A DNA stretch of 55,401 bases, filler included, from Asterionella formosa (lineage: Eukaryota), in NCBI GenBank assembly GCA_002256025.1. It is 5 parts of 5 records of this genome, joined end to end, with 100 filler letters (N's around TTAATTAATTAA, not from the genome) between each part and the next. Parts side by side here need not be neighbours in the genome. Positions count along the whole stretch, not along the records: positions 1 to 11,015 come from NKIB01008902.1; positions 11,116 to 22,119 come from NKIB01008911.1; positions 22,220 to 33,217 come from NKIB01008924.1; positions 33,318 to 44,314 come from NKIB01008925.1; positions 44,415 to 55,401 come from NKIB01008933.1. One strand, 5' to 3'. Numbering within the stretch: position 1 is the stretch's first letter; each line of letters starts with the position of its first letter. Shown here in pieces: positions 4,150 to 52,359 of the stretch. Both the position numbers and the translations under genes were made by a program. The notes under the pieces are model-generated. The model was not told where the DNA came from, searched no databases, and saw nothing but the letters and a program-made list of their open reading frames with translations.

Positions 4150-4362
4150 ACTTGAAGTAGTAGTACCGGTATTTGTTGAATATATGAGTTTCTTATTGAA
4201 TCTTGATATGCAACTCATTCTTTACGTTGACTCCAAGTTTACAATAGGTGGTGTTAGCCGAGTTCTCGCATTATTGGCTGAGTTCTGATACTGGTACACC
4301 GGTATATATATGATATAACCCTTTCCCTATCTACATCTGTTGTGATGCGCAGGACAGCTCAC
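4150..4362. repeat. LTR-like direct repeat, copy B (carries CCGGTA insertion at 4164-4171)
   Basis: Aligns to 645-832. Confidence 0.75.
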
Positions 4363-5449
4363 CAGGAACCAGAATACAACTATGATTTTTTTGCAGTACA
4401 TTTTCACGAACCTCTGGTCATGACACATGTATACTTGCAGTAAATATTGAACTGTGTATGAGCGATGCAAATAATTAAGGCACTCGGACATAAACCGTTC
4501 TGAAAATTGGGGAAAATGATAAATATTCATTCATTTAGACATCAACCATTGTTCACACATGTATGACTCATTGGAATGCCTGTATCTCGATGGGCACAGC
4601 ACAGCATAATGCCAAATAATTAATCATGACCCCCAATACGTATCTCCTTTGTTTGAATGTCATTTCTGCATCAGCAAATTTGTGATATGCGCGAACTGAA
4701 AAGCTTTTTTCTCTTTTGCAAAACATCTACCGGTAAATGTTAACCCCGGATGCAATTATTCTTTCTCAGACTGTCATTTCTGCATGAGCAATTTAGTATC
4801 AATGGTACCAGTACCAACAAATGAAGCCGCTTATATCTTTCATACGTAAATTTATACTCATCCATTCTTGAATGTCAACATCACTATTTCTACACAATGC
4901 CAGTATCAAAGTCAGTTGACAGAATATCGATCCGTTTATGCCCATTGTGCCTCCAGTCAGTAATGACGCAAAAAACTCGGCGTGATTGAAACGGCATGAG
5001 CATATTATTATCATCTGTTAGCTACGATCGAGCAGTACAGCTTTTTTCGTTTTTCCTGAGCGAATGGATGCATGCATATTCATTCTTGAGTACCGGTATC
5101 AATATTGATATTTCCTCTCAATTCAGGTATCGAAGTCACTGGACAATGTATCTTTACATTTATGCCTATAATGCCCCCCCAGTCCGCTATTATGCAAAAC
5201 TCGCCTGTAATAATGTAATTAAATACCGCTTTGTATTCCTCAAAGATATAAAGGTCGTTGAAATGACCGAACTGGAACTTGACTTTTTCATGGCTCATAC
5301 CGGTACATATACGCAGGACAAAATTGAAAATTGGACGGTCCGGTACTATTATTTATTACATACACAAGATTGTGATTGACCCCTTGTGCCATTATCCATG
5401 TTCCCATAAAAGCAACAGTTAAAACGAACAACCACAAATCTCATGAACA

Positions 5450-5878
5450 ATGATTTCATCAACAGTTTGCCCTACTGCTACTTCGACCCCTTCCGACGAG
5501 TCTCTCGTCCCTGAGCAACTTTTATCCCGTCTAGTCGACTCTCTCGAAGCCATGGAGGCCGTGCAGAATCTGACCAGAGATGTCGGCACCTTTGTTCTCA
5601 AACATCGCGTCGAAGCGAGCCGAAAGAGGTCGCAATCAGGTGATCTCATGACACAGTCGCTCAAAAGAAAAAGAGCAGCGGAGGAAGCCTTTGGATCTTC
5701 TGAACCAGTGGCTCGATCAGCAGAGACGTCCGTGAAGCGCATGCTTCTCGTTTACCAACATCTACAAAAGACACATGCGCTATTTCAAATTGAAATTGCG
5801 AAGTTCATTGACGAGACTGAGGACACCTGCTTACTAGCGGAGGAATCACAAGACGTTTCTTCCATTTCCGCAGAGTAG
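5450..5878 (+). CDS. Hypothetical 142-aa protein
   Basis: ATG-initiated ORF, more GC/CpG-rich than its flanks, with a helical composition and a basic KRKR patch. No family recognised. Confidence 0.5.
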   Translation: MISSTVCPTATSTPSDESLVPEQLLSRLVDSLEAMEAVQNLTRDVGTFVLKHRVEASRKRSQSGDLMTQSLKRKRAAEEAFGSSEPVARSAETSVKRMLLVYQHLQKTHALFQIEIAKFIDETEDTCLLAEESQDVSSISAE

Positions 5879-6479
5879 ATTAAATGTGGTGGCATCAGCT
5901 CCATCAACAAGTGAAGCCACATCGCACTGTGCACATATTCAGGTAATACTCCTTTGGTCGTTGCTTCCTTCTTGGCAGGTCATGACATCAAAGCCATTCT
6001 ATTTATAATAAAAGATATTTGTCAACACGCGATTGTACATGACGATAGTAAACAATCTGCCTTGTATCTCAGTTCGTCAACTCGTTTTCACTTCGTGCAA
6101 GCCTGACGTGTTCTTTGGTGAATTCGCCATTCACATTTATACTTAGGTATTTTATCCTCGTCGTTCCACTAGTACGTTAGGGTTGTACTGGACTTCTACT
6201 TGGCTTGCCGCTACCGGCATGTATGTGGAGGAAGATGCATTGTGAGCATATCTCTTGTACTGTACAACGGTATTTCCTTTCTGCCCACCATGTAAAAAGC
6301 CTTTGAAAATGTGCATATTTAGCACCCGTACCGTAAAACCTGTCTTTGTGTTTTGTACCCCTGAATTTACACAGCCAGCCACATTATTGATCATTCAACA
6401 TAATGAAAAAATCAGCTCATGGAACAGGGAGTTTGCTGCTATGAGTTCCCATGATTCAAGTGTCCATTTGAATATTTGA

Positions 6480-9650: not shown

Positions 9651-10458
9651 CTATGAAGGGTTCTAAATACAAACATAAATCTGATGAATCTCCTACATTA
9701 TGAAATCATCGCGATTTGCGATTTTCGCCTTTTTCATCTCTTGGTGAATCTTGGCAGCATTCCAGACTTGAGCTTTCTCAAATGAAAAAAGCTGAAGTTT
9801 GGAATGCTAACAACAAGAGCAGTTCCATGAAAGCAGTATATGTAGCAGCATGACTGGTACCAGTACTCTAGTCTAATACCAGGGGTGGCTTAGAGATTCC
9901 CCACTGCATGGATTGCTCGCGATGCCTCACACATCACTGGATGCAATGGTACATCAGTTCAGTTCTACCGGAAAAAGTACCAGGATTCCGTGTACCTCCA
10001 CAGGACAGTCAATCGTCCGGTATTTGAGAAAATGATCGAACTGTTGTTCATCAAGACGAACACGGTGAAGCTAAGATGCTGGGTAGTGATTTTCGGTTGA
10101 AGTTTAATGAAGACCACCTTCACGGCGTTATACCGGATGATTGTCCGAAAAATATCTAGTACTAGCTTGCAGTAACTCTCTACTGAAGGTTAATTTTTTA
10201 AATGGAATCCTGATTGAACGAAAATGTGCCTTTTTTGTCAGTACAAGTGTGAGACATACGAGGCTGCAACTATTATTTAGAATTGCACCACCCAACATCA
10301 CTCAAATGTATGACATATACCATTTATGTGAATACAAGTATAGGTACATAATAATTATTGTAATAACTACTATAATTTTTGGGTGCACATGATTAATTAT
10401 CAGATTTACTGCTCATTTGCACATTCTTGGTTGCATCCTCTTCCCTTCATGCTCACCA

Positions 10459-10837
10459 TGTTGAAAGGTCTCGTACTCCTTCCCGTCTGACGGGTTCCTC
10501 TTACGTAGAACTTACCTGTTATACCACTAGTATTGTTATCTTCTTTCTGCTGCTAGCCTTCGTGCTAGTTTTCGCTATTGACCTTTCTCTGTCAATTCTC
10601 ACTGTTTCTTAATTATAAGATTAAACTAAAACTAAGTTTCAATCCCATTCATCACACTTCGAGAACCTGTTCTTCGTGTTCCCTTTTCGTTGATGTAAAC
10701 CTTCTTCTGATTGATCTAAGACATCAATCTCGTTAGCAAGCTTCTTGACATGGGAACGCACCATTTGACTCATTGGACTATAGTCGAGTCCACAGTCCTT
10801 GTGACTCATTATAGCCATTGATGCTATATTCTTGACA
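10459..10837 (-). repeat. Copia 3' LTR (TGTCAAG...TTTCAACA), preceded by polypurine tract GAGGAGGA
   Basis: TG..CA termini. PPT at 10838-10845. Homologous over its length to the solo LTR at 25701-26112. Confidence 0.8.
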
Positions 10838-14457: not shown

Positions 14458-16352
14458 TTAAAGGCTTTGCACCAATGCCACTAACTCGTCTTTTGTTAGT
14501 GGCTTTCCATCCCCACCTACAGCAGCAGCCCCTCGATTCTCCAAGTACACGGACAGGTCCTTCGCAGTTTTACGCTTTAGCGTTGAAGGCGACAAGGTCT
14601 TCCATGGGTTCATGTCAGTTTCGTTATCATTCTGATGCGTCTTCTTGGCCCCCTTTGTCGCTGCAACTTTCTTCTCGGCCGTTTTTGCTCCCTTGGAAGC
14701 CCCGTTAGCGGCGGGTGCAACTGAATCGTTCAACGCGAAGAACATGGGTTCTGGTTCCAGTACTTCCTCTTTTGCAGATGAATTTGTAGGGGTGGGCTTC
14801 GCTTCTGGGGCTGCCTTTTTATCACTAGCAGCCTTTGCCTCCGCAACAGCCTTATCACTAGCAGCCTTTGCCTCCGCAGCAGCCTTATCACTAGCAGCCT
14901 TCGCCTCTGCTGCGGCCTGATCACTAGCAGGGATTTCTGTTCCTGCTTTTTTGGCCAAGTTCTCTTCGTCCACTTGCTTGATCAATGCCAAGATTCTATT
15001 ATTTGCATCTGGGTCGTCCATCTCTTCCATCATTTCCGCAGTGAATTGCTCCATGGGTTTTGCTACAGCAGGCATATCAGCTTTTACCTTAGTTGCAGCC
15101 GCCAATTGTTTTTTCAATGCTGCAGTCTCTACAGTCAATTTATTCAATGCAGACTGCATCATTTCCTGTAATGTTCGAAAAGGAGTAGCCGAGTTTATTA
15201 GTCCATCCATCACGCAGATTTATTCAAGCAAGCACAATCCACGTCATAGTTCAACACACACACACCAAAGGTACTCACCTTATCTACTTGAATCGCTCGA
15301 AGCTTACTGGATTCCAATATGGAGGAGGCCATAGAAACAGACTTATCTCCATTGACCACAATTTTGGATGCTCGATTGGCAGCTTCTGCGGCTATGTTCG
15401 CAGCTTCGGCAGCTTGCGCGGCCTTTTGATTGGCTTCGTTCAATTGAGCCGAAAATTCTGCACGAGCATCCTCAAAGCCTGCTTTTCGTTGAATCAATGC
15501 TAGAACCACCGCCAGGCCAGCCACATACCATGCACCGTACTCTTCCAATCGGAATGTCGCCATGACATTGTTAAGGGACGATCCAAAATTAGCTGTACTA
15601 GCCGCAGCACCAGCCGCAGCAGCTACACCACTAATCGCTTTACCAAAATCAGTCGATTTTTTAATCATATCTCCGTCCATATCTGGAAATGCAATTTTGG
15701 AATTGATGGTATCAGTCATGAGAGACGACGAGGGAGGCAATGTCGGAAAGGTTGAAAACTGCAAAGCGTTGGACTTCAAAATGGCAAGCTTCTCCTTGGC
15801 GTTGGCAATAATATCCAAAGAATCTGACGAGACCGGATCAGCCAATAGTTTAGTAGAACCCCCAGATGTCTTGGCCGATTGCTTAATCGCACCAATATTA
15901 TCCCGAAAGAATTCAAAAATGGTGGGAGCTCGGTCTGTGGGGGTTTTGGCAACTTCCTTGACGATAGTTTCCACCACAGCCACTGGTTCAGGGATGGAGC
16001 TGGTGAAGGGCTCCGGCATTGTAATGATAGGTTCTGGGAGACTAATAACGGCCTCTACGGGGGGCTCTGGGAGACTAATAACGGCCTCTACGGGGGGCTC
16101 AGGGACACTAATAACGGGGGGCTCTGGGACACTCACGACAGGCTCGGGAGGAGATTTATTGATAACAATCTCCGGCGCTTTCAGAGCACTGCTCGACCCC
16201 GCATTCCTCCTTTGATAATTGGACACAATGTCATAAAGTTGTGTTGTTGTTGTTGTGCAAGTGAAACGCGCTTTGCGAGGTGTCATAAAGGCATCAGCGC
16301 CATTGCCGCTCAACAAGATCCAAGTCGCGAACAAAGCAAAAAACGTTGACAT
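14458..16352 (-). CDS. Two-exon plastid-targeted protein (~593 aa): Pro-rich repeats, one TM helix, coiled coil, C-terminal SAP/HeH-like module
   Basis: Exon 1 is 16352-15279 and exon 2 is 15165-14458. The phase-0 intron 15278-15166 (GTGAGT...TTACAG) joins QVDK|EMMQ. Signal peptide ends GADA-FM. TM segment is YGAWYVAGLAVVLALI. Confidence 0.8.
14820..14930 (-). repeat. 33-bp coding tandem repeat (AEAKAASDKAA) x ~3
   Basis: Repeated ttatcactagcagcctttgcctccgc units. Confidence 0.9.
16030..16150 (-). repeat. Coding Pro-rich repeats (EPPVEAVISLP / EPPVISVP)
   Basis: Repeated ctctgggagactaataacggcctctacggggggctc units. Confidence 0.85.
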
Positions 16353-17835
16353 GTTGTCTGATGAATGATGTTCGGATCAATAAGTGTAGGAGTGATAGGA
16401 TCTGCTTTAGACTACTGGCCCTGTATGGAAGCAATAGCTGGCTGACCGGTGACTATACCCCAGTGAACCAACAATGAAGGGGCGACGATTCAATAATCTA
16501 GGGAGCGAGATAAGTCGAAACTATTGAACGCCTTCTACAGCAAACAGTTGCAGCAACGAACTGGCGAGCGAGGCTGATGGGCGGACCATGCTACCCCCCG
16601 TATTTAGCATTCGTCTTTGCTAGCCTACTATACAAAATACCTGTTGCATTTTGTAGTACATAGGCCATGCAGGATACCTTTCAAATGTAGCAGATCATAT
16701 TACCGGTAAGTGACGAATGGAACATCATCTGTTGAAGAACATCACCATCAATCTAACAACTTCCGGGTTTTCAGCGGATTGAACAATCAGACTAAAATGA
16801 CGACACCAGCAGCCAATCAAGAATTACCTAAATCATCAACAATCATAACCCCCTACGCAANNNNNNNNNNNNNNNNNNNNNNNNNNNNNNNNNNNNNNNN
16901 NNNNNNNNNNNNNNNNNNNNNNNNNNNNNNNNNNNNNNNNNNNNNNNNNNNNNNNNNNNNNNNNNNNNNNNNNNNNNNNNNNNNNNNNNNNNNNNNNNNN
17001 NNNNNNNNNNNNNNNNNNNNNNNNNNNNNNNNNNNNNNNNNNNNNNNNNNNNNNNNNNNNNNNNNNNNNNNNNNNNNNNNNNNNNNNNNNNNNNNNNNNN
17101 NNNNNNNNNNNNNNNNNNNNNNNNNNNNNNNNNNNNNNNNNNNNNNNNNNNNNNNNNNNNNNNNNNNNNNNNNNNNNNNNNNNNNNNNNNNNNNNNNNNN
17201 NNNNNNNNNNNNNNNNNNNNNNNNNNNNNNNNNNNNNNNNNNNNNNNNNNNNNNNNNNNNNNNNNNNNNNNNNNNNNNNNNNNNNNNNNNNNNNNNNNNN
17301 NNNNNNNNNNNNNNNNNNNNNNNNNNNNNNNNNNNNNNNNNNNNNNNNNNNNNNNNNNNNNNNNNNNNNNNNNNNNNNNNNNNNNNNNNNNNNNNNNNNN
17401 NNNNNNNNNNNNNNNNNNNNNNNNNNNNNNNNNNNNNNNNNNNNNNNNNNNNNNNNNNNNNNNNNNNNNNNNNNNNNNNNNNNNNNNNNNNNNNNNNNNN
17501 NNNNNNNNNNNNNNNNNNNNNNNNNNNNNNNNNNNNNNNNNNNNNNNNNNNNNNNNNNNNNNNNNNNNNNNNNNNNNNNNNNNNNNNNNNNNNNNNNNNN
17601 NNNNNNNNNNNNNNNNNNNNNNNNNNNNNNNNNNNNNNNNNNNNNNNNNNNNNNNNNNNNNNNNNNNNNNNNNNNNNNNNNNNNNNNNNNNNNNNNNNNN
17701 NNNNNNNNNNNNNNNNNNNNNNNNNNNNNNNNNNNNNNNNNNNNNNNNNNNNATATAAATTGCCAGACACCGACAAACTAACACAACATATTACCAGTAC
17801 CGCCTCGTTCGAAGGCTTGTTGCATAGCTTCCCCT

Positions 17836-19095: not shown

Positions 19096-22000
19096 GGCGC
19101 GGTGGAGACGACGAACGTGTAGAAAGAAAATGAAGCGCTGGTGGCGAAATCAGAGATCACTGTGAAGGCGCTGACGGCGTGCGAGTTTGGACGCAGCAGA
19201 GAATTAAGTTCAAGGGCAACAACTGTCGCAACAACTGTAAACGTGCCCAAGAAACGAGAACGGACGCTAATCGTGTTTCTGCGAGAAGTGCTTGCGTCGG
19301 CGTCACTTCGTTTTCTGTCGCTCTGACTTGAGTGTCAACCTTTCTTTCCGCAACGATCACACCGCCTCAACTGCCAAACTCTATCAACGGTCCTCTTTAG
19401 CTCTCTTGACTCGAAAGGAAATGACAAGTAATCAGTGAAACAGAATAATGATGTACTACGGTAGCATTCCATAACAAACAGTGGAGAATATCGTTATATC
19501 GGGTGTGCGTATAAGCTATTTGCTTGTTTTGGCTGCAGGTAGATTAAGACCCTGACATTTTGGCTGCTGGTGACACCACAACCACGCAACTTATTCTATC
19601 CTAGGTAAATTGATATGATACGTACTGAGTAAATGCTGTGTGGAGTACCGGTGTGAGTTTTGTCCAGTGAGGGCATATGTACCGGTACTCCTACCTTGAC
19701 AAAAGCAACATATTTAGTAAACCCTGTCCACCCATGGCAATGGTCGAACCACCGAAATGATGAGGTCCCTGTAAATGCACAGCCATAGTGTCTTATACGC
19801 ACACATGATAACTAGAAATTTCTCCATCTGTTCGCTATGTCTGTATCAGGGACTCCACCACGTACAATCAAGAATAGATTCTATGAGTACCTTGCATGAA
19901 CAAAATGGAACAAATGTGCAGTTGTGTACAAGAGCCTCCGTAGAGTCATGATGACGATTGTTAGTACCGTATACTGGTTACTCCAATATATTTACCGGTA
20001 CCCTTCTAACGGTATTCAGTAAGTGCGTAGATTCCCACAGCTCTGGTACACCATGGATATACAATAATACTCTAGTACAAAAAAATCAGTTACTTGAAAA
20101 TCTATTGCTGTCAACCCAAATGCAGGTTCTCTGTCATTCTCTCTCTCTCCACAGGTTATTAATCCCTCGTGAATAGTGGGACATGTGATCTCTGTTGCCC
20201 ACTGATGCCAACCAAGCCGTCAATATTGGTGTGTTTGTGTTTGGCAAAGCAAGCCCCCCGGCATGATCCTCCAGCCAGACTTATGTCCTCTGCTGCGCCA
20301 AGGAGACCCATTTCACATGACTCCCCATCCCTCCTACCCTATCACCCCCAATACACTGCTGGCACATGCTTTGGGCCGTCTGCTCCAAATCCTTTCCATG
20401 TCCTCCCAAAGTCTCGCCATGAGTCAGCTTCAAGCCAAGCATTTCTGGATGACCCGCCCACCTCATACACCGCCACAGGCCCCCACCCTCCCATTTGGTC
20501 TGCAGCATCTGGTTCACCAGCTTATTACACCCCTGATCATGGTATAAGAACCAACCTGCCTAAATACAATCCATTGATAGTTTCAAAATGACTCATTCGT
20601 TTTTGAGAACTGATCCAGTTGACTCTTTTGTTTACAAGTACTGATCCAGTTTGATGACTACATATGACTAGAAATTTGCTGATGACCACATAAAATTGCA
20701 GACTATGAATATGACTATAAGTTACTGAGCAATTTGTGAACTCTATAACCAAACCATCTTCCAGCAGGTCCTGAATGCATACAATCACATGTAGTAGAAG
20801 CAGTTGAACATGATTTCGATGATCAGAAGGGGACTTGGATTTAATGAATGATGACTCAACAGCATAGAAAATTACATACTAAGAGAGTTTGGAATGGAAA
20901 GCCAGCCTAACCCTTCCAGTACTAGGCATGGGACAAATCATTGGGAGTGAGTCAAACCTGAACAATTGCACATAAAACATGCAGTACCAGACTTTCCAGG
21001 GCAGAACGACCGGTTGTACAATTATGGTGCTGGTATAAAGCAATATTTGCATTGTATACCATGTACAACCCATGGCACTTGTTCGAGGGAGAACCTGGAA
21101 GGTCCGGTAATTGAGATATTTAGCTAAATCTTTTCTTTAGTAAGAAATGTTTTACCGGACTTTCCTTGGTGGTCCTGGTATTCTCCCAGAATCTGACAAT
21201 TGTGTACAGTCAGATATGTTAGTTTCTCTTTTGTTTGTATAATTTTATTGTGAGTTACTAAATTAGTTAGGTTTGTTCAGTTTGAATAATCAAACAAACT
21301 ATTTCTCCAAAATGCTGTTTGCATTTGTAAGAACATTTATTCATAGATAGACCCATATCTATCTCACAATTATTGATCATAGGTTTATAACCATTTGATC
21401 ATTGGATTCAAACTATCGCTATTTTGAATATTCCTCATTGTATGAATCATTAGAGCAAAAAAATTGTGAGGTTGATGAGAGCTTGGTAAATCTAAAGTCA
21501 ATTCATTTGACTTCGAGGCAAAGATTTACTGGTACCAGGTACTCCCTCTGGTTGAAAATAATTGCAGCAATTGTTAAAATTTTTCCGGCGCAATTTTGAT
21601 TCCTGCGATTTTCTCCGGCTCAATTGCCCTAATGTGCGCAATTGCATAAGCTACAGAGGATCCATGTATTATATATATCTAGTAAATTGAAAATTGGCAA
21701 CTCTGCATCAATCAAAAAGACGTTTTTGGGATTTTTCGATTTTCACTTATGGCTATCTTGAGCAAAATGCAGATGCATGAGGACCCATATTAGTAGAACA
21801 ACAGCAACTTGCATTCAATTATGATATGAGCAACCCCAAAAGATGCAATGGTGGGAGGGAAGAAAATGATGGTATGCTCAGCCGTTTTGAGGAAATCACC
21901 GTTAAATATCAGGGGGTGTGGTCAATGTAAGTGCAACAACTGTAGAAAGCAAACAAAAATACAGTTATACTATTCATGTTATAATTATGATACATCTAAG

Positions 22001-22219: not shown

Positions 22220-22542
22220 AATTGGTTGGTGTCGATGACATCATATCAAAGGTGTTGTGGACGAAATTATTTATTGAAGCACAAGGACACAAGGTGACTA
22301 CGAATGTCATTTACCGTGACAACACTAGCGCAATGAAGCTAGAAGCGAATGGAAAAGCAAGTTCAGGAAAACGCACGCGACATTTCAACATCAAATATTT
22401 TTATATTACTGATCTTATTGAAAGAAAGGAAGTACAAATCAAGTACTGTCCATCGGATGCAATGTTAGCAGACTACATGACGAAACCACTGGTTGGAATG
22501 AAATTTATTCATTTTCGTCAGGAAATTATGAATTCAAAGTGA
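22220..22542 (+). mobile_element. Ty1/Copia (CoDi-like) pol RNase H C-terminus, truncated by scaffold start
   Basis: VIYRDNTSAMKLE.NGK.SS.KRTRHFNIKYFYITD...YCPSDAMLADYMTKPL. Confidence 0.93.
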
Positions 22543-22564
22543 GCATCCGTGTCCAGCAGGAGTG

Positions 22565-22830
22565 TGTTGGAGAAAATATTTTAGGAAAGAAAATCCGGGT
22601 ATAAATTACCTACTACATATTGAATCGAATGAATCAAGAAAGAATATGGTACCAGAGAATTCGAAAACAATCTACGCCAACAGTAAAAACCCATAATTCT
22701 ATTAAAACGCTTAGGAACGATTACAATCGATCACGGAGACATCGTTGTTATATCTACAGCCTATTTGGTCCCTGACGTGTCCTTACAGGATACAAGAAAG
22801 CATAGAGTGCTTCGGGACGCAATTTCAACA
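22565..22830 (+). repeat. Probable 3' LTR of the Copia element
   Basis: Purine-rich CAGCAGGAGTG followed by TGTTGG...TTTCAACA. Confidence 0.6.
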
Positions 22831-23609
22831 GATGATTGCAACAGAATCATGCAAGAAATGTAGTCAGCAGAGATTCACTTCTGTCAATGTTAAAGACCAT
22901 ATTTGAACATGGTTTTTATTATGATGATTTGCGATATTACTGCCTGCCTATACATATAGATATAATGAAAAGACCAAAGAAGAGGAACACATGGATACAG
23001 ACAAGATTGAATTTATTTTATACCGGTATTACGATGCATGGCGGGCGAAGCGTCATCACGTCCTGTGCGTGATGGAACGCTCGCTCTATAATAGGTACTG
23101 GTGGTACCAGGGGAGTACATGTAGGAAGTACCGGTACCGGTATACCGAAAATCCATGTCGCTATCATTGCTTGTGCGATGATAAAACAATATCATACAAC
23201 GTACCGGTAGCTAGAAGCAAAGTTTAACATAGATTCGAGCAGATATAGACAATCGTACATACATTCACTTTATAAACAATAGAAATACAGCAAAACGTGC
23301 TTCAACCAATATAAACCTTCATAAATGGGATTTATGTATGGAGTATCCTTGTTTTTCTTACTTTCTTGTTAAGATATATACCGGTATTCATTATCATGGA
23401 CTACATTATCCAAAAAATTTGAAGCAATATTTCAGAAATAAAGCAAATCAGCCAAATCAATAGACTAAAGCAATATGGTAAACTATAGACTACTTACGAC
23501 CTGTGCATAGGCTTGGCTAATACAGTTCCCAATTCTTTGTGGGTTTGATTCCAATGGATGGGTGCCCTAAATTTATATTTCAAGGTTCCCCCTCCTCCCT
23601 CTCTTCAAG

Positions 23610-23933
23610 TTGTGTAGATGTCACCAGATTGATATGAGAAGTACAAATTAAGCTCATTTCCTAGTTGGGTATTATGAAAAGATTAATCTTTATGTAGTAG
23701 ATATCTATTTAGCTTGGTTACCAACTGACTTGATAGTTCTTGTTTGTTACAACTATTGAATCAAAAATTGGAAATTGTGTAGATGTCACCAGATTGATAT
23801 GAGAAATACAAATTAAGCTCATTTCCTAGTTGGGTAATATGAAAAGATTAATCTTGATGTGGTAGATATCTATTTAGCTTGGTTACCAACTGACTTGATA
23901 GTTCTTTGTTACAACTATTGAATCAAAAATTGG
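23610..23933 (+). repeat. Tandem duplication, two ~160-bp copies
   Basis: TTGTGTAGATGTCACCAG...TCAAAAATTGG at ~23610-23771 and ~23775-23933 with few differences. Confidence 0.93.
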
Positions 23934-24686
23934 TTTGTATATCAGGGTACCCAGTAGTTTATGGACATCACCTCTCCAAATTGGTATCATTGTGTACCAT
24001 CCAGTATCACATGAAAATCATATCATTACAAATTTGAAGTGGGTATCTAATTTTTGTACATATAATGATACGATTGGGGAATCAAAACGGTTTTCGGGAT
24101 ATGGAATCAACAACATTTCCCAATTGGGAACATGATGCAAACTAAAGTGGAACTCAATTTGGTATTGAAAAGTCCTAATTGTTACTTTGGTATCAATTCC
24201 TGGTGTATGCATTTACACATACTGGTACACAATATCACCTGAATTCCGAGATTAAATATTTGTTTTGTTACCGATTGGGAAAATCAAATCAGTATTGTTG
24301 CAGGCTCCTGTTTGTATCTTGCATAATTTTGGCACAAGCAGAGGATTCAACAATGATGACCATGGATGTGAATAGTACATCAATTGACATGGAATACCTG
24401 CATTCAAGGACAGAAATAGATTCAATTATTGCAAAACAAATGTGTTGATAGTTTTGTCCAAAATTTTTAAGCACAAAAGCTATTGATTGTCTGAAATGAT
24501 GGCAGAAATGCCTTTGTATTATGAACCAATGTCTTGGATTTATTCAATTTCAAAATGGTTTCGGGCATTTCCTGATGGAATCACTTCAACAACTAAAATA
24601 AAATATCTCATCATCCCTTTGTTTTGCTTTCCATACGTAGTAATATATGGTGCAAATAATACCGTGGGAAGAAAAGGGCTTTCAAA

Positions 24687-25484: not shown

Positions 25485-25700
25485 ACCGGTATTTCAGGCG
25501 GACAGCAGTAGATGGTGAATGTTATAGGAGCAAACAAAGTAAACAATTGAACAGTTGGTACCTGTATCTGATAGTGTCCGGCTGTTTACGTATTGGTATG
25601 CTTTCGTCGTGACATTCAGCGCTTGTTTATATTTTGCTTACTAATACTCGGAGTACTTCTGACAGAAGCGAGATTACGGTACCAGGTACCCGATACCTGG

Positions 25701-26112
25701 TGTCAAGAATATTACCGGTAGCCCGAGTCACAAGGATTGTGGACTCGATTGTAATCGAACGAGTCGAATATTGCATTGCCACGTCAATCAGCTGTCTAAC
25801 GAGATCAGAGATTGAAGATTTCTATGGAAATGTTAAGTGGAAACTCGAAGAGAGTCTTAGAATGACTTTGCAGGAAGCAAAGATGCATGGAAAGGAAACA
25901 TTTAGTTTAGCTTATAATTTAATTTGAGATTTAGATTATCAACCGAGGAAACAGTGTGTTAATTGACAGGAAGGTCAATTAGTCTATCTAGCAGGAAGGC
26001 TAGAAGCAGAGACAAGAGAGAAAGTAAGTGGTACTAGGTAGTACTACGATCACGTAAGAGTCTACGTGAAGAGAGACCCAACCCGCGGGAAGGAGTACGG
26101 ACCATTTCAACA
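25701..26112 (+). mobile_element. Solo Copia LTR with ACCTGG target-site duplication
   Basis: TGTCAAGAATAT...GAGTCACAAGGAYTGTGGACTCGA...GGGAAGGAGTACG..TTTCAACA matches LTR 10459-10837. ACCTGG lies at 25695-25700 and 26113-26118. Confidence 0.85.
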
Positions 26113-32223: not shown

Positions 32224-32778
32224 TCAACGAATCTTCTTCAACGTAATCTCGAAATGTAATTTGGCATTTGGTGGAATATCAGGTGGGCATCCCCGCTTTC
32301 CATATCCCAGCTTGCTGGGGATAACTAGATTCCTTATTCCTCCCACCTTCATACCAGCAACCCCTTGGTCCCAACCTTTGATTACATCCCCAGCACCCAA
32401 GCAAAAGCCAAATGTACTAGCAGCATCAAATTGGTATCCATCATCAAGTGTCCCCACATACTTGACGACAACGGTATCTCCAAATTTAGCTTCATCGCCC
32501 TGGCCTTCTTTTCTATCGTTCATTAATACTTCCGGAGTATATTCCACATCGCTACTACTTACGGGATCGCCTTTGACTCGAAAGGATTGACCAGATCGTA
32601 CCAATTTTCCAGAAGCCACGGCTTTTTTCAAAGCCGATTTGAGAGCAGTGGGATTATCGTACTCCATTTCCGTCTTTAGGTATTTGGCAATGGCAGAACG
32701 TGACACAAATCCCTGCGGTTGCTTGCGAATGGCATAAAGGATTTTTTCCAGAAATTTCTTTGGAGGTGTTGAGGACAT
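32224..32778 (-). CDS. Linker-histone H15 winged-helix domain fused to FKBP-type PPIase
   Basis: N-half ILYAIRK...SRSAIAKYL...LKSALKKAVASGKLVRSGQSFRV. C-half VVKYVGTLDDG.QFD...VIKGWDQGVAGMKVGG.R.LVIPS.LGYG..G.PP.IPPNA.L.FEI. Confidence 0.9.
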   Translation of the reverse strand: MSSTPPKKFLEKILYAIRKQPQGFVSRSAIAKYLKTEMEYDNPTALKSALKKAVASGKLVRSGQSFRVKGDPVSSSDVEYTPEVLMNDRKEGQGDEAKFGDTVVVKYVGTLDDGYQFDAASTFGFCLGAGDVIKGWDQGVAGMKVGGIRNLVIPSKLGYGKRGCPPDIPPNAKLHFEITLKKIR

Positions 32779-33877
32779 TTTTAAGGAGCAATAAAAGCTG
32801 GAGTCCAATTTACGTGATCAGCGAATGAATTGAAATACACTATGAGCGCCGTTGCAAATATCATATATTCTGGGAGCAGACAGTACGGCGAGATTGGTAC
32901 TTTGATTATGATTGTATTCAATTGCTATAGTACTCAGATGTCTCGGCTCCCCCTTTCCCCGTTGCTTCACGATGCTTTCCGGAGACGAGAAGTGAAATGA
33001 GGGACTCAGGGACAAAGATGAATCACCAGATGCCGGTTATAAAATCTACTTCCTACTACACTATGTACGTACCGTATACTTCATTGTCCTGGACCCCCCC
33101 TATGGTTGCTGGACCCCCCTGTACATTTTTCTCGAGGTGGAACCAAACACCCAATAATTTTCTTGTCATAGACAAAGTAACGTGCTATAATTCTTTTTGT
33201 CCTCGTAGGCACTAGTANNNNNNNNNNNNNNNNNNNNNNNNNNNNNNNNNNNNNNNNNNNNTTAATTAATTAANNNNNNNNNNNNNNNNNNNNNNNNNNN
33301 NNNNNNNNNNNNNNNNNCTCTATCCCAGGGGTGTATCAGATATCTGGAAACAGAAAAATGCTAGATACCACAAGGTATTTGATCTATTCCTTTTTTCAAT
33401 CTGCATGCACCACGTGGTATGAGCAATTTGATCTTGACTATCCACACTGTCGCAATAGTATATAGAAACGATAACAAATGAAGCTTGCAGTACATTCCTA
33501 ATTCAAAAAATCGCAATAGTTTAGAGGATTCTAGATTACCTGGTATGAGAAGACTGGGGTGCCAATATAGTGTTAACTATCGAATATATACTGTTGGTAT
33601 AATGTACCCGAGAAACTACTGTTATATATTCTTCAAATTCTGAAGCGCTGGTCAACTATGCATAAACTTTATTCATGTGTATGCTATTTATATAGAACAT
33701 TTGGCTGTAATTAATCAATCAGGCTCTCGCCATAAATCCATTACATACACGTCTATTTGGATTTATTTACCGTTATAAAATATGCACAGAATTGATTCCA
33801 TTCGCATTCAGCGTGCATATACCGGTATATAGTATTTCTTTCAAAGAAAAGTATCGTATGTAGTGAGGCATTGGAAA

Positions 33878-34761: not shown

Positions 34762-35902
34762 AAAGACTCCAGAAGTGGTGTGAGCAAGTGATTGTAAATG
34801 CATTTTCAATGGCTGCTGTCAGCCATTTTCCCAAGAAATCTCACAGACAACAGGAATCTTTTGTGACTTGCTTTTGTCTTTCTGCATTACATATCGTCAT
34901 AAAGTATTCAAAGCCCTGACCTTTCGTTCTGAATCACGGGGAAATGGAAGTGATTGTTCATTTCCATTCATTCTACACTTTAAAAGATTTAGAATGTATT
35001 ATTCACTGGACTGGACCCCCCTGACATACCCCTATTTGCTAGATATCAGGCATGCTAGGATGTATTTGTGGAGGATTTGAAATGGCAATGTCAAACACCA
35101 CTACCGGTATTCATTTGTGCTATGCAGCAATACCCTATGCAGACCAGGTATTGATAATAGTCGTATTGCTTTGTTCCATAACTCGTTATTGCCTGCTTGA
35201 TAAGATTCAGAGCAAACGCAACGCTCGCCTCCTTGCTTAGGGCTTAGTTGAGGACAGAACCGATTTCGCAACTTGGACAGGACTTCTTCCTTGGCTCAGC
35301 CTTCAACCTAATACCGCGTAGCAGAAAGGCTATTTTGCATCTAGCCCACATATCTTGTAGCGACTGCATTCATACCCTTAATGTATTATACTTTCTAGAT
35401 GATGTAACTTTTGATATAGCTTTACCTTCGTGTGATGGTAACGATGAGTGCATGCACTACCGTGATATTTGCCGTTTACAGTAGACGACAAACAAGCAAA
35501 ACGCCGTAATATCATACTCCTTACATCATTTGCATCTTTCTATTGTACCTGTTATTCTGGTACTACCAGTAGGACCCTTACATCATTGTGGTTAGGGTTC
35601 CTCATCAGCTGCGGATATTCCTGGCTGTGGTCCTTGTTTGCGTTTTGAATCATGGGATTATTAAGTGAGTACCTGGTACAGTATTGCCCATCATTAATGC
35701 ATGATTCGACGAATTTACCATATGTGCTATGTACCGGTACCAGAGTTCATTAAGTCATGTTACTTAGTATGTAACTCAAAATATAAAACAAAATTTAGAT
35801 GCGCTCATAAATCAAATTCGTTTGAATCGCTCAGTTCCACAAAACAGTTTGTGTGTCAACAAACTGAACTCTTTGTTCATCGCTTCATCATCACTATAAC
35901 AT

Positions 35903-39719: not shown

Positions 39720-40100
39720 CAGAAGACTATGATGTAAAACAGTGGAAGGGAAACGCGGAGCTTTTTGCGGCGCTTGTGGAGGTGCAGCTGGTGTGATGGT
39801 AACCGAGTGTAGTAATTGTTGAACAGAGCACAGCAGTGTAATATGCATGTTCCGCCAGCGTAGTGTTTACACAATACACATGCCGGCGTAAATACAGCTA
39901 TAACAAGGAAAAACGACACAACAATGAACTTGCTGGCTGGTTGTTGAGTATACCGGTATGTGATATGCATTAATCCATATCACAAATCATATTATAGTGA
40001 TGTACATAACAACGCAGATGTACATATCAATGAATCCGTATACTTAGATCCTATACACCATAGAATAATATCATATTAATTGTTGGCTTTTACTGTATAC
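39720..40100 (-). repeat. Dispersed repeat, inverted copy at ~54240-54525
   Basis: Both copies translate as ...LCKHY.GGTCILHC.ALFNN.YTRLPSHQLH.HKR, and the nucleotide match is visible. Confidence 0.85.
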
Positions 40101-41577: not shown

Positions 41578-42790
41578 GTGCACTTCAAATATTTGCCGAG
41601 CCGCCAGGTCGTATGACACATAAACTGTCGATCAGTGTATAGAGTGTATGCCGGTATATAAAGAGAGATAAACAATCCATATCTATATATTTACCAAATT
41701 CGAAAAGGAATCTATGCACGTACGCGCAAATTTCTAATGATCTGAATATTTCAAATGGAATCATGTCGTTTAAAAATAGTTCATAAAAGTTCTTAGTTCC
41801 AGGGAATTTCGGCAACCCTAAGCAATATTTTAATTTTTGCCTTAGGGTTGGAATCCTAAAATCTCCGGTCCAAAAAATTCCATTGTAAGTGCCTGCTTCC
41901 ACATATATAATATGATTAGTGAACGTGAATTGCATTCCTCTGTTTGATTGGCCTGGTTTGCGAGGTCTTGCAAACCCACGCCGGCCACATTGTATAAACA
42001 TGTAATATTTTCTCGGGTGTACTGACAGTCCGGTTCTGAATTCTCGACGGGTACCAGGGTACCAGGTACTAGTAGATGATCATCATTGGACATACGCATA
42101 CCGCTCCTTCAGTGCACTTTCAAATATTTGCCGAGCCGCCGGGTCGTATACATGACCCATTGTCGTCGATCGGAGTATAGATTGTAGTACTGGTGTATGC
42201 TCATGAAGCGATGTAGAACCTAAATATTTATGTATATATTAAACGATTTGAATATGTCGAACGGATTCAATGCATAGCATATAAAATCGTTAATCGGAGT
42301 ATAGAGTGTCCATGCATATTTGTTGATCGAATCTTTAGCGTATGTCTACACTCAGCGACTAAGAGTGTTAATATATATATTTAGCGATTTTGACAAGGAA
42401 TCTATGTACGTATTCGAAAATTTCCACTGATTTAAATATTTCAAATAGAATCACGTCATTCAAACATAGCTAATTAAATTCTCAATTCCAGGGAATTTTC
42501 GCAACCCTAAGCAATATTATAATTTTCGCCTACCGGTAGGGGTTCAAATCAAGCAACCTTAACCCTAGTTTGGAGAATAAATCGATAGGGGTGTAAAAAC
42601 GGCGTGGAACAGGGAATTTTTTCTGTGTATTCCCAAGATGCAAGTATCTCCCTGAATATTTAAACTAAGTAGAAAATGGCGCCACATTGATAGAGTTCCA
42701 TTTCAAAACGAATGAAGACGTTTGTGTTGTATCTAGCTTGCTCAATGTAGATATAATTTTACTCCCCACCAGAGCACATGTATATACTAG
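41578..42790 (+). repeat. Direct-repeat terminal region of a DNA transposon-like element
   Basis: GTGCACTT(T)CAAATATTTGCCGAGCCGCC at ~41578 and ~42112. GGAATCTATG...TTCCAGGGAATTT..GCAACCCTAAGCAATATT occurs in both copies. Confidence 0.75.
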
Positions 42791-44149: not shown

Positions 44150-44158
44150 CGTGGTATA

Positions 44159-46616: not shown

Positions 46617-47135
46617 TCAGTTGTTGGTCATCATGAACGCCCAAAAGTTTTCATGTGCGTTGATCGAGTACGCCGCTCGTCCAACAACCGCCAGAACGAA
46701 CGCGCTCCAAGTAGATACCAAAACTATTTGCTTCTGATTGATGCTCCCGTAGTCAATGGCATATCCTTTCATGCGGTTGAAGGCCCAATCATTTGGATTC
46801 CGCAAATAGGCGTCCATGTTGCCCTGAGCGGTGTTTCGGTCGCAGTCGTCGCCCGCCATGAATTTCAACACAGCTTGCTCGTATTCATCCGGCTTAAAGA
46901 TGCGCTGCAAGGCAGGATTGGGACCCTGACGAAGAAGAGATCCAAGAATGTTGTATCCTGCCGATGGTTCGTCTTGAGGCGACGTGGCAGTCCAACGTTC
47001 GGTAGCTTTGTCGTATTTGGGAGCCATAAACAATGCCTTGCCACTGACCCCTCGTGCGGTTGGCACGAATGCAGTCATGGGAACCAAAAGAAGTACCGGT
47101 AGGAACAAGCTCAAGTTCAGCATCAGTCCCCTCAT
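46617..47135 (-). CDS. Plastid-targeted hypothetical protein with C-terminal TM helix
   Basis: Signal peptide ending MTA-FVP, a transit-like stretch, a globular core (GSLLRQGP...YEQAVLKFMA...AQGNMDAY..NPNDWA), and TM segment IVLVSTWSAFVLAVVG. Confidence 0.75.
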   Translation of the reverse strand: MRGLMLNLSLFLPVLLLVPMTAFVPTARGVSGKALFMAPKYDKATERWTATSPQDEPSAGYNILGSLLRQGPNPALQRIFKPDEYEQAVLKFMAGDDCDRNTAQGNMDAYLRNPNDWAFNRMKGYAIDYGSINQKQIVLVSTWSAFVLAVVGRAAYSINAHENFWAFMMTNN

Positions 47136-49160
47136 TTTGTTCAGTATGAAATATGGACTGTCGGATTCGAAAATCAATAACACTCCCATACCGTGATTTT
47201 ACTCATGACGTGACACAGCACATCTTTTAGTATACGGGTAGTATACTGTAATTTAGCGGAATCCATATACCGGTATGTGTGTATGTAACTAGTAATACAG
47301 TGTAGGTAAGTGAAATCTTTTGTTATGACGGCTGTTTGGGAAACTCCTTATGTTTGGCAATTTGCTGCTTGAGGGATCATTCTTTCACCTTGCTGTTGGA
47401 GCTGTGAAGTAAGAATTTTTCTTTGATTGTGCCTTTGGTGGTTGAAATGGTCACTTTTCATCATGCTGCTTGCCTGCTTCAATCCTTCAAAGCAGTTAAT
47501 CAAACTCTATGTCCAGTTTCTTGGTGCTGGCTGGTACTAGATTTTCTTTTTAGTTCTCCTGGTTGCTCTTGTGGTGTGATGAGCCAATGTGAATGCTTTT
47601 GTCAACTTCCGTTATCATCTTGTTGCAGTCCCTGTCTTGTTAATCGCTCCTAATCTTCTGGATCATAATAAGTAAATGCTAAAAAAAAATTTAAGTATGC
47701 GTTATAGCGACTTGACTATAGTGGAGTTTGTTGGGTTGCACTGTCGCCAGAGGACCAGGATTGTACTAGATGTAGGACATTAGAGTCGGGCAAGAAGGAT
47801 CCCAAGTGGAGGAGAAAGATGCTGTAACTGTAATAGACATGAGTCAGTCAAGGAGCCAATGTGGCTCTTAGAGTGTGGTGGATAAAGTGAGAGAAGTAAG
47901 AGTCAGTGAGAGCGAGAGACAGACAGAGGTAGAAATATGGAAGAATGATAGCTTGGAAGCTATGGATGATGGAATTGATAAGGTGTTTATACTCAGATGA
48001 ATGACAAGCTGCAGTCAAAACGAATTGATAGCTAAAGCAATTCTGAAAGCTTGTGCAAGGCAGCTTGTTTGATTTGTTGATAATCAAAAGGATAGATGAG
48101 GAAACACAGGTATGGAAGCACATTATTGCTGGAAGGGAGGTCTTGATAGTGCTGGCATCGACTTGTTCTGAGCTGTCATTGACTGAAATTGGAGTGGTGA
48201 CAGGCTTTGATAATAAATAAATGAGTAATACTTGATGCCATGATGAATTTGATGATAGATTAGCTAGGAGTCAAGAGAGGAGACGCGTGCAGTTAGAGAG
48301 ATCCGAGAAAAGTGACATTCTTGATGCCGTTGGTGCCTGATGGCAGAGAGGAGTGTGGGTGGCAACAATAGAAGAAAGCTTCTTGGATTTTCCGGAGGGT
48401 CTCCCGAAGTCTTCCAGGTGAATATAAGAGAATTTGAAGGTGGTAGAGAGAGACAGAAAGTTCGTGGGAGGAGGAATAAGCAGTCGTTTGAAGAAGTGCT
48501 GTGAGAGGTGTGCAAACTAGGCGAAATTAGTTGTCTCAGGAAGGTAGGNNNNNNNNNNNNNNNNNNNNNNNNNNNNNNNNNNNNNNNNNNNNNNNNNNNN
48601 NNNNNNNNNNNNNNNNNNNNNNNNNNNNNNNNNNNNNNNNNNNNNNNNNNNNNNNNNNNNNNNNNNNNNNNNNNNNNNNNNNNNNNNNNNNNNNNNNNNN
48701 NNNNNNNNNNNNNNNNNNNNNNNNNNNNNNNNNNNNNNNNNNNNNNNNNNNNNNNNNNNNNNNNNNNNNNNNNNNNNNNNNNNNNNNNNNNNNNNNNNNN
48801 NNNNNNNNNNNNNNNNNNNNNNNNNNNNNNNNNNNNNNNNNNNNNNNNNNNNNNNNNNNNNNNNNNNNNNNNNNNNNNNNNNNNNNNNNNNNNNNNNNNN
48901 NNNNNNNNNNNNNNNNNNNNNNNNNNNNNNNNNNNNNNNNNNNNNNNNNNNNNNNNNNNNNNNNNNNNNNNNNNNNNNNNNNNNNNNNNNNNNNNNNNNN
49001 NNNNNNNNNNNNNNNNNNNNNNNNNNNNNNNNNNNNNNNNNNNNNNNNNNNNNNNNNNNNNNNNNNNNNNNNNNNNNNNNNNNNNNNNNNNNNNNNNNNN
49101 NNNNNNNNNNNNNNNNNNNNCCAACACCCCATTGATAAAATCAACCTATTATTTGATTAA

Positions 49161-51462
49161 TTACAATGGCCATTGAAGATTATTGAGACAGGGTATGCTG
49201 CTTTTACATAGCGCAACAACCGTGATTGGCCCCTTGGTCTCAGGAATATAGCATTGAGCAGAATCAGCAATAGGACTTAAATAGAGCAAGTAAACCTTCT
49301 TAAACTTTGTAAGCCATCCAGCCTTATCGCACATAGCTGTAAACTGTTCCAGCACATCGTCATGTTTTGAAATACGTAAATGGACACCACACACAAATTG
49401 ACCACACTTCCAGATGAGATCAATTGCGGGAAATTTGGAGTTTTGGGGTACATACATTCCATCCCATTCCATGATTTTCGGCAAATGTTTTGAGGGAAAG
49501 GTTTCAATGAGATTGAATTTTTTCAAAGGCAGGGATCTCTCGAAGGTAACATCTGCATTGCTTAAACAACGATTGATCACAATGAGTTCAAAAATCCGAC
49601 TTCGAGCATCATTCGTCAAATCATGGTTGGCACAGTCGTCCAAAAGTACTTGCTCATGTTTATGAACAAAAGCCATAATGTCGTTCCAAAAGAAGATTCG
49701 GTACCCGTCTAATACCAAAGGATACAAAGGCGAATAGCGATTAGTCTCCTTCCCCTTACAAGGTACTGAATACATCCTGTCATAATGTATTCGATTTCCT
49801 GTATTTGACAAAACGCAACCAACAGCAGATGCTGTGATACCATCAAATGTATATTTCATTTTCTTGTCATGCAAACTTCCAAGAGAATCTAGAATTGATC
49901 ACAATTCATCCTCTTCATAGTCGTCAAAAGAAAACTTGAAGGAAATCAGTTTCCTCACCTGCAAGGGCACCCCACCAGTCACCTTTAGTATTTTTTCGCT
50001 GTCATTTCGGGTAGCCAATTCCTTAAAGGCAAGCTTTATTTCTTTCAAATCCATGTTGCAAGGGTGATTGTATTCCTCAAACCCTCAATGACTTTCCTTG
50101 TAGGCAACCTCATTGTTTGTTGAAGCTGAGATGATGGAGACAATGCGGCGGCCTCGCTTCATTATGTTGTTGATGGCACTAAAAGGAAAGGGAAGCGTAC
50201 TCAGATCTTTGGCGTCTTTCAGCAATGACCGAGAAAACAACCTGTTGATCTGATCGAAAATAAGGACCCATCTCCTGTCCATATGTTGGAGAATCAAGTC
50301 AATGGCATCAACAAAAGTATTCAGACGTTCCAATTGTTCGTCCAAGTCTGAGCCGATCTGCCACCTGACAGCCGTTAATGAAGTACCAAATGAATTGCAT
50401 ATTGCATTGTACAAGTCGCTAACACATTCCCATCGATCACAGTCTGGAATGAAAGTAACGAGGTATTTGCAGCTGCTGTCATACTGCAGCGAACGAACCA
50501 AGGTTGACAAGTGAGTGCGACTTGCCAATTACATGCGGACCTTTCATTATGATTCCAGACCGACGATTTTTCTTGAAGGTACCGTCAATCACTTTCATCA
50601 TTTCCTTCACAATTTGAGGGCGATATAAAATTCCCCTATTATCGCAGTCATCGAACCGCAAATGTTGGACCTTGTGCCTCCAGTAACTATCTTTGGGGGA
50701 AAAAGCAGATATAGCAGAAACAGAATTAAGCTCGTTCGCCTCTTTCGGATCAATATCGTAGACATGCATTTTCTCTGGAACGCTCCGCTCCTCCTGCTCC
50801 TTTTTCAACTGATCAAAATAATCTTTGAGCTTCTCCTCAAGCAGCACTTCNNNNNNNNNNNNNNNNNNNNNNNNNNNNNNNNNNNNNNNNNNNNNNNNNN
50901 NNNNNNNNNNNNNNNNNNNNNNNNNNNNNNNNNNNNNNNNNNNNNNNNNNNNNNNNNNNNNNNNNNNNNNNNNNNNNNNNNNNNNNNNNNNNNNNNNNNN
51001 NNNNNNNNNNNNNNNNNNNNNNNNNNNNNNNNNNNNNNNNNNNNNNNNNNNNNNNNNNNNNNNNNNNNNNNNNNNNNNNNNNNNNNNNNNNNNNNNNNNN
51101 NNNNNNNNNNNNNNNNNNNNNNNNNNNNNNNNNNNNNNNNNNNNNNNNNNNNNNNNNNNNNNNNNNNNNNNNNNNNNNNNNNNNNNNNNNNNNNNNNNNN
51201 NNNNNNNNNNNNNNNNNNNNNNNNNNNNNNNNNNNNNNNNNNNNNNNNNNNNNNNNNNNNNNNNNNNNNNNNNNNNNNNNNNNNNNNNNNNNNNNNNNNN
51301 NNNNNNNNNNNNNNCAATGGTACTTAAACTATTTTCACATTTAATCTTCACGGCATCCATCAAGTCTGCAACGTCATCATTCGGATTCAAAGTGACATAC
51401 AAGGGCACTTGTGCTTTGCGTCCAAGAAACAACTGGAACCAAACCTTCGTTCTTGTCGACAT
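49161..51462 (-). pseudogene. Crinkler/CR-type effector gene: ubiquitin-like header + P-loop NTPase + restriction-endonuclease-fold domain; disrupted
   Basis: Header VWFQL...DDVADLMDAVKIK. Walker A GPHVIGKS, Walker B VLIFDQIN, TGGVPL, and REase-like YVPQNSKFPAIDLI...V.LRISKH. Frameshift near 50500, in-frame TGA at 50085-50087 and 49899-49901, and an N gap inside. Confidence 0.78.
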
Positions 51463-52359
51463 GATGGTATCTGATAGGGAAGTCCAAATAAATGGAAGTG
51501 AAAAGAGGGCAACCTCGTATCAATCTTGAAACAAAAGTGAGCCCTGTTGTGACTATGATACCGGTGGTGGTACTGGTACCAATACCATCTAAAAACTCAG
51601 GGGTTCTCATCATTTTGGATAGGGTATCAAAATATTTAGAAAAGTATCATGCAATGGCTACCGGTATTCGATTTAAAATGAAAATATTCATTCTCAAGAA
51701 AAAATTTGATAGAATTCGTATCACCCTAAAGCATCACAAATATTCAAAGGCTTAGGCTGGCTACAGACATGTGCTTTTCCTTCCAGACTATTGCATTCAT
51801 TAACCAGCACTCAAACCATGTAGAGGACATTCTAGCAATGACAGTTGACAATCAACAATGAAGGTGCCGAGGATTGTGATAAGTACTCTGACACCAGCAG
51901 CAATGGGCTTACCTTCTCCTCCACAATCTTTGCACAACCAAAGCTCTATCCTCCAAACAGATACTGTGTAGTTTCAAACTCTGCCAGAAGATTGGATGGA
52001 GTAGGCATGGTTGGGATTACATGCAGGGACAATTTTTGTTTTTGTTGCTTCTTGATGCTGATGATGCAGCAATGAAAATTTACACATTGGCTGGTGTTTC
52101 TCACTCATTCAAATGGCTGATAAGGCAAGAGTATGAATGATGACAGAGAATTTGAGAAAAAAGGTGGTTTGCATATAAGCTGATGAAATATTTTTTTTAA
52201 TAACTTAGAACAAAATATTGCCCAAATGTGACAATGACGTATTCGAAAGCATCCACTGGCCCGGTGGACGCTTTCGAATACGTCAAGTCCCAGTGGTACC
52301 ATTGCTTGATGAAGGAGAACAACATGCTAAACATTAAGACTCAGACCTCTTTGTGTATC

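Follow-up and report, generated by a model that had tools for sequence, protein, structure and literature searches.

Excision scars of transposons are usually regarded as rare and messy. The element Sleeping Beauty leaves three letters between two TA dinucleotides, and the footprint of Minos, a Tc1-like element of insects, amounts to a net gain of 6 bp, made up of four terminal letters and the duplicated TA. According to one account, the nick made by the Sleeping Beauty and mariner transposases falls three letters into the element, so that the donor flanks keep 3-nucleotide (3-nt) 3' overhangs; when the ends are joined, the scars that result are identical to these overhangs (PMC7827188). In rice work on Mariner/Stowaway miniature transposable elements with inverted repeats (MITEs), 8 of 94 DNA-transposon excisions are reported as clean, the rest carrying deletions or filler (Roffler and Wicker 2015, PMC4423477). 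Here we describe a 55,401-base stretch of DNA from the freshwater diatom Asterionella formosa, referred to as the window, which joins five pieces of about 11 kb each and of which 53 kb were examined. The palindromic octamer TACCGGTA occurs in it 25 times and was probably left behind when TA-targeting cut-and-paste transposons of the IS630/Tc1/mariner type were excised.

The original prediction, made from the sequence alone, had listed 25 starts of TACCGGTA and set them against roughly one or fewer predicted from base composition. All 25 are exact, against a mean of 0.35 and a maximum of 3 in 100 dinucleotide-preserving shuffles and an order-2 Markov expectation of 0.38 sites. The octamer is the top-enriched 8-mer of the window (39.6 times the order-2 expectation) and is found in all five scaffold pieces, with 4, 3, 10, 5 and 3 sites. 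Its density of about one intact site per 2 kb, rising to about one per kb with variants, agrees with the one per 2 kb or denser that had been proposed. Flanking TA dinucleotides are present at 25 of the 32 ACCGGT sites, so that the number of AgeI sites is inflated by the motif, and at 25 of the 97 CCGG sites, while the control palindromes TAGCGCTA, TAGGCCTA, TACGCGTA and AACCGGTT have 0 sites each in the window. The DNA, which had been called CpG-eroded, is indeed eroded, if only moderately, with a CpG observed/expected ratio of 0.74.

Single sites make up 23 of the 25. Those identified as exact matches with no further feature lie at 4728-4735, 5091-5098, 16701-16708, 19993-20000, 23202-23209, 33820-33827, 35102-35109, 35732-35739, 47094-47101, 47268-47275 and 51659-51666 (no strand is assigned to any site or element of this kind). 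The remaining two, starting at 23129 and 23135, form the tandem TACCGGTACCGGTA with a common TA at 23129-23142, within a cluster of five scars at 23021-23386. Just downstream of this cluster, a 165-bp tandem duplication, 95% identical, occupies 23610-23933.

The tandem pair is the only feature in favor of a hexanucleotide microsatellite (CCGGTA)n, or of a library or assembly artefact, as the origin of the motif. Tandem Repeats Finder reports 2.5 copies at 23128-23142 as the longest period-6 array, and the flanks of the 25 sites are mutually unrelated, which shows that no longer repeat has carried the sites along as copies. Flank preference across the 50 half-sites is marginal only, with a deviation at positions +3 and +4. 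Public runs containing the stretch are lake or freshwater metagenomes and metatranscriptomes, and contigs from the DNA runs X2, X6 and X7 and the RNA run X10, representing four studies, were compared with window positions 22220-33217. Contigs were placed at 90% likeness and the positions or side lengths of length differences were not printed; parts of this interval that have no listed contig cover are uninformative either way. Zero-gap contigs from independent runs span the sites at 23379-23386 (record 8 of X2) and 25484-25491 (X2, X6, X7 and RNA run X10), and 29749 is spanned by X6 and X7 contigs with at most one gap. The expectation that the motif would recur in independent data was thus borne out on contigs in place of raw reads. 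Since the sites recur in contigs from four runs, each of a different study, they are not an assembly artefact, and an artefact or microsatellite, to which we give practically no credence, is ruled out as far as the present data reach.

The window contains a few old repeats, whose paralogous copies allow a motif site to be compared with its counterpart in three cases. The copy at 4164-4171 reads GTAGTAGTA-CCGGTA-TTTG and aligns with GTAGTAGTATTTG in its paralogue (659-764), which has a plain TA. Similarly, the copy at 42531-42538 has the motif and both of its paralogues (41842 and 7664) have TA only. In two of three comparisons, the motif is therefore, judged by alignment, a clean derived insertion that adds 6 bp to a TA, in keeping with the proposal that it was inserted rather than ancestral. 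In the third, the motif occupies one and the same position in two copies with a likeness of about 79%, as TACCGGTA at 39951-39958 and as its CpG-changed counterpart TACTGGTA at 54361-54368. Here the motif is older than the duplication, and the CpG change is visible directly.

These insertions bear on the possibility that TACCGGTA is a functional palindromic site, maintained or spread by selection, to which a dimeric transcription factor, some architectural protein or a factor linked to methylation would bind. Such a role would suit a perfect palindrome of which no copy (0 of 25) lies in supported coding stretches, defined by Pfam or RNA and making up about 17% of the window (about 9 of 53 kb), in line with the original statement that nearly all copies are non-coding. 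Some copies are also near gene starts: the site at 25484-25491 adjoins the start codon of a gene on the minus strand (24690-25484), and 29749 is another example. A selected binding site is nevertheless difficult to reconcile with a motif that arises as a copy-specific 6-bp insertion at TA inside repeats (4164 and 42531), that resides within transposons (19680, 25713 and 31131), and that shows the length variants, arrays and free CpG decay described below. We regard this explanation as quite improbable, even though a motif array in another diatom-like contig (see below) is likewise intergenic in gene-dense surroundings.

Of the copies within transposons, the one at 19680-19687 is inside the element 19497-19810, 25713-25720 is within a high-copy repeat and 31131-31138 within the highest-copy repeat. 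Very high-copy repeats cover 22220-22953, 25523-26256, about 29823-31783 and 33072-33217, with a summed contig depth in run X2 of up to 261,277 compared with about 150-170 in single-copy stretches. The repeat at 29823 begins with TG directly after a TACGGTA, contains no open reading frame (ORF) of at least 90 codons, and may be a long terminal repeat or similar element.

Elements with tips that match the motif reside in the same 53 kb. In the window listing of TACCGG words that are not followed by TA, a recurring continuation was found, and the corresponding 13-mer TACCGGACCTTCC matches at 21109 without mismatch, at 21153 and 5345 with one mismatch each and at 20985 with two, every match being an element end. 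An inverted-repeat element of 121 bp lies between two TA at 20985-21109, with tips CCAGAC... and ...GTCCGG; its arms of 16 nt (including TA) are 88% complementary, and it aligns throughout with its own reverse complement. A second copy of this element starts at 21153, with homology running to about 21250, and here a micro-element of 24 bp is enclosed between two TA (21153-21180, with the tip CCGGAC and CCAGGAC on the other arm), as seen from the end 13-mer and alignment. The same two lines of evidence identify a truncated right end at 5306-5345, ...GGACGGTCCGG followed by TA, directly beside the scar at 5298-5305. A TA-flanked piece of 41 bp at 9978-10022, with tips CCAGGA... and ...GTCCGG, is a weaker case with 6-nt tips only. 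A second type of TA-flanked inverted-repeat element, at 19497-19810, has 19-nt arms (including TA) that are 89% complementary and tips TCG/TCA followed by GGTGTG, which resemble the start of classical mariner repeats.

TA is found on both sides of 20987-21107, 21155-21178, 9980-10020 and 19499-19808, as would be expected from target duplication. The letters CCGG and CCWGG of the scars equal the tips of resident elements, and the scars add 6 bp at TA. By their sequence, elements that duplicate TA, have inverted repeats and end in CCGG (CCAGG on one arm) coexist with the scars within 53 kb, as the earlier postulate of a cut-and-paste family that duplicates TA and has CC...GG ends had implied. 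Two further candidates were considered. A possible TA-flanked high-copy element at 25694-26120, with CCTGG at both tips in the tip listing, is uncertain and was downgraded as a CCTGG-tipped parent, as its arms match poorly and its homology to 10459-10807 may pass the left tip. Position 4304, initially taken for the tip of an element, is more plausibly a scar that has decayed, judging from the paralogue comparison. As a separate observation, the words TATGATA/TATCATA (29 sites vs 12-13 expected in the window) and TATTGATA/TATCAATA (11 sites vs about 4 expected) are also frequent; TC-tipped elements such as 19497-19810 might have left them as scars, or their frequency may be a composition effect.

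If TACCGGTA is an excision scar, the parents here would be small non-autonomous elements in which one arm starts CCGGAC... and the opposite arm has either CCGGAC or CCAGGAC. On insertion, such an element would duplicate the target TA, and excision would leave its outermost letters on the flanks as 3' overhangs. With a 3-nt stagger like that of Sleeping Beauty or mariner, both overhangs of a CCGG-ended element would be CCG. These could pair through their self-complementary CG, and the filling of one letter per strand followed by ligation would produce TA-CCGG-TA and thereby add 6 bp net. If all three letters paired, with a C-C mismatch in the middle, the result would instead be TACCGTA or TACGGTA, and CCA or CCT tips, overlapping by one letter, would lead to TACCAGGTA or TACCTGGTA. 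Later C-to-T changes at the CpG would convert the scar to TACTGGTA or TACCAGTA, and re-insertion into the TA of an old scar with a new excision would build arrays. Perfect pairing of the overhangs may also explain the uniformity of the scars.

The variants in the window follow this scheme to a considerable extent. The CpG-changed forms TACTGGTA and TACCAGTA have 16 sites compared with 1.1-1.9 expected; TACCAGTA is at 1398-1405, and besides the counterpart at 54361 others of the two forms are at 4289, 4806, 9858, 17792, 24220, 31842, 31877, 34236, 35564, 38347, 42817 and 51571. TACCWGGTA has 7 sites compared with 0.2-0.4 expected, among them TACCAGGTA at 628-636 and further single sites at 33537 and 35670, and all seven positions given for it beforehand were verified. 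TACCGTA/TACGGTA likewise has 7 sites: the five listed earlier, namely TACCGTA at 6329-6335 and sites at 19457, 19965, 29816 and 33070, are correct, and two were added at 9511 and 25675. The products that would form with no overlap, TACCGCGGTA and TACCATGGTA, have 0 sites each in the window. On sequence grounds, the observed spectrum (25+16, 7, 7 and 0) fits the pairing registers of CCG/CCW overhangs.

Neighbors of TACCGGTA with one mismatch number 33, with 11.4 expected. CpG transitions account for 16 of them (1.9 expected) and the other 17 compare with 9.5 expected. A mismatch cloud of this shape would be expected of rather young, neutral relics that decay without constraint, and together with the TACCGGTA/TACTGGTA pair at one paralogue position it favors the earlier interpretation of TACTGGTA and TACCAGTA as products of CpG decay.

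Short arrays of TA-bounded units start at 21527, 23129, 25675, 26113, 29749 and 42049, and a strict array pattern is found four times in the window, compared with 0.03 in shuffles. Apart from the tandem pair, these comprise TACTGGTACCAGGTA at 21527-21541 (variant and array listing), the units CGG, CCAGG, CCCGA and CCTGG at 25675-25701 (variant and array listing), and CCTGG-TA-CCTGG-TA at 26113-26127, two 7-bp units identified with Tandem Repeats Finder. In addition, TACCGGTACCAGTA at 29749-29762 has two units of which the second has a CpG change (exact match and array pattern), and GGGTACCAGGGTACCAGGTA is located at 42049-42068 (variant listing and Tandem Repeats Finder). A dense run of half-scar-like words (CCAGGTAC, GTACTGG, GTACCAGG and CCTGGTAC) at 29520-29580, about 50-130 bp upstream of the start codon of a carboxypeptidase gene, may be what heavy decay has left of a scar array within a promoter.

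Alternatively, scars could be made in place, either by inserted elements that shrank through abortive gap repair or internal deletion or by a transposase that joined no more than tip fragments into a TA, with TACCGGTA being the smallest deletion derivative. The pieces found between TAs do form a size series of 121, 41, 24 and 4 bp, all with CC..GG tips, and the truncated end at 5298-5345 is directly beside a scar. This route needs the same family and the same breaks and is in that sense a variant of excision scarring; the dominance of one product (25 intact and 16 CpG-changed sites vs few micro-elements) is easier to obtain through overhang pairing. Formation in place is therefore considered unlikely, though less so than a selected binding site.

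Differences between the run contigs and the window offer hints that scars are still polymorphic, as far as contig sequences can indicate this. Over four sites (22911-23359), an X6 contig is 6 letters shorter than the window. Over 26136-26652, which includes the site at 26213-26220, contigs of X2 and X6 are 6 letters longer. In an X2 contig, the 415 bases at 25702-26116 are replaced by three letters, the junction consisting of three TA-bounded scar-like units, and one X2 contig matches the window up to the TACC of the scar at 23021-23028 and then continues into repeat sequence.

Other genomes were approached through a collection of metagenome contigs. The flanks of site 31131 with a gap of 2-8 letters had 0 matches there. 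An alignment search with the carboxypeptidase returned 80 loci from this collection with a best identity of 58%, so neither the organism nor a close relative is represented in it. These 80 loci (390 kb, many short and mostly coding, hence a poor background) contain 11 TACCGGTA and 0 matches to the element-end 13-mer TACCGGACCTTCC. One diatom-like contig, sampled twice (L013 and L016), encodes the carboxypeptidase with 58% identity and has a GC content of 0.51. Between its genes lies an array of five TA-bounded units (CCGG, TCTGG, CGG, CCAGG and CCGG) together with five to six TACSGTA, and from this array the process is probably not confined to one species. A stretch of the same contig (L016:6850-6925, equal to L013:2024-2099) may derive from the end of a related element that resided in another diatom, although the match is post hoc. 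The contig also encodes, on the minus strand, a nitric-oxide-synthase-like protein of 1,540 residues with an N-terminal globin match (L016:11954-16573) and a cytidine/dCMP deaminase domain fused to a 2OG-Fe(II) oxygenase (L016:7855-9426).

Perhaps a single family is hopping, now or until very recently, so often in freshwater diatoms that its scars lead among small insertions, at about one per kb and with only a few per cent divergence as their mean age. Lake populations would then still differ in their scars, and at least one further diatom genus would be subject to the same process. Each visit would add a methylatable palindromic CpG site, so that scars could also seed new sites for protein binding. 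This wider scenario is put forward tentatively, and we consider it more doubtful than probable.

A number of points weigh against excision as the source of TACCGGTA. The case is built on 53 kb, with excision itself inferred from sequence. The transposase is a matter of conjecture: the elements seen are non-coding, and the search for TA-flanked inverted-repeat elements and their transposase, which within the window yielded the CCGG- and CCAGG-ended elements, met with no DD(E/D) domain by Pfam in 54 + 7 window ORFs (61 in all), nor was any transposase found by Pfam in 19 ORFs of L016. Two pair scans of the window (24-nt ungapped; 16-nt with at least 13 matches) found no CC-tipped TA-flanked inverted-repeat element of greater length beyond those described. 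Scars outnumber recognizable elements by about 55 to 5, or roughly 10:1. As a jump leaves one more scar but no additional copy, such a ratio calls for a family that is long-lived or very active. The 3-nt stagger is borrowed from other transposases, and a stagger of 2 or 4 nt would also give CCGG. The excess of TACCGTA/TACGGTA, put forward as a variant of the motif, is weak at 7 sites vs 2.4-3.6 expected, and the frequency of arrays exceeds what random re-hitting of TAs would produce and requires local hopping or target preference. The motif shared between 39951 and 54361 is old and uninformative about origin, and differences between run contigs, with side lengths unprinted, could stem from paralogous loci. 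Lastly, the uniformity of the scars is far above that in the rice data, with 8 clean cases among 94 excisions (PMC4423477). With these points taken into account, transposon excision is still the origin that we consider likely.

The window itself is nuclear DNA of a freshwater diatom. Its genes are eukaryotic and include, by Pfam, VPS11, a La-domain protein, a serine carboxypeptidase, an FKBP and a mitochondrial-type EF-Tu with an intron. Named relatives of the serine carboxypeptidase are diatoms, its best matches being a JGI protein at 100%, then 81% and 79%. The GC content is 35-45%. Each separator between pieces consists of twelve letters with 44 N on either side, and the sequence has three internal gaps. 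Other features of the window include a single ORF at 32227-32817 on the minus strand that combines linker-histone (H1/H5) and FKBP-type prolyl isomerase domains (Pfam E 1e-5 and 3e-28) and has RNA contig cover, and a fragment of a retrotransposon RNase H/reverse transcriptase at 1571-1945, also on the minus strand (RT_RNaseH, E 5e-15). Tandem repeats of 33 bp, or 11 codons, at 14819-14930 and 16033-16117 (3.4 and 2.6 copies, 92-96% identity) are both inside long minus-strand ORFs that have no Pfam match.

If the excision origin is true, scars would rank as a major source of small insertions in this genome, and one not described to date, and cut-and-paste elements could be a principal origin of short insertions even where few of their copies remain. 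It would also mean that diatom end joining repairs such breaks with high fidelity. Scars and arrays would then constitute a countable record of transposition and rare-change markers that separate lake strains, and the family would be a candidate for an active transposon tool in diatoms. Motif-discovery runs on diatom promoters would be misled by the motif.

A literature search on TACCGGTA/ACCGGT, on palindromic 8-mers of diatoms and on mariner scars in diatoms, which covered the literature in part, found no paper. The apparent novelty is that one scar word would prevail in the k-mer spectrum of a eukaryotic genome; the mechanism would be textbook Tc1/mariner biology. Among systems that resemble it, the internal eliminated sequences of ciliates have TA boundaries and Tc1/mariner-like ends, and their programmed, precise removal leaves a single TA with no added letters. 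The footprint of Minos shares the gain of 6 bp with the diatom scar, although Minos is an insect element with different tips, and we know of no description of a genome-wide pile-up of Minos footprints. The cyanobacterial HIP1 (GCGATCGC) is likewise a palindromic octamer with a CpG-containing core and a very high frequency, but it is bacterial, is tied to orphan methyltransferases and is not known to arise by insertion at TA (PMC4390886). The likeness to HIP1 is one of appearance and not of mechanism. The MITEs of rice are closer in that they are non-autonomous and TA-targeting and that their insertions and excisions are polymorphic between close relatives; they differ in that no single scar word is known to be enriched in rice (PMC4423477). 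The closest correspondence is with the Tc1/mariner footprints of Sleeping Beauty and Mos1, which share the duplicated TA and the terminal letters left between two TAs (PMC7827188). Compared with these footprints, the diatom scar is the top 8-mer of the window and unusually uniform, plausibly through CCG overhangs that pair via CG.

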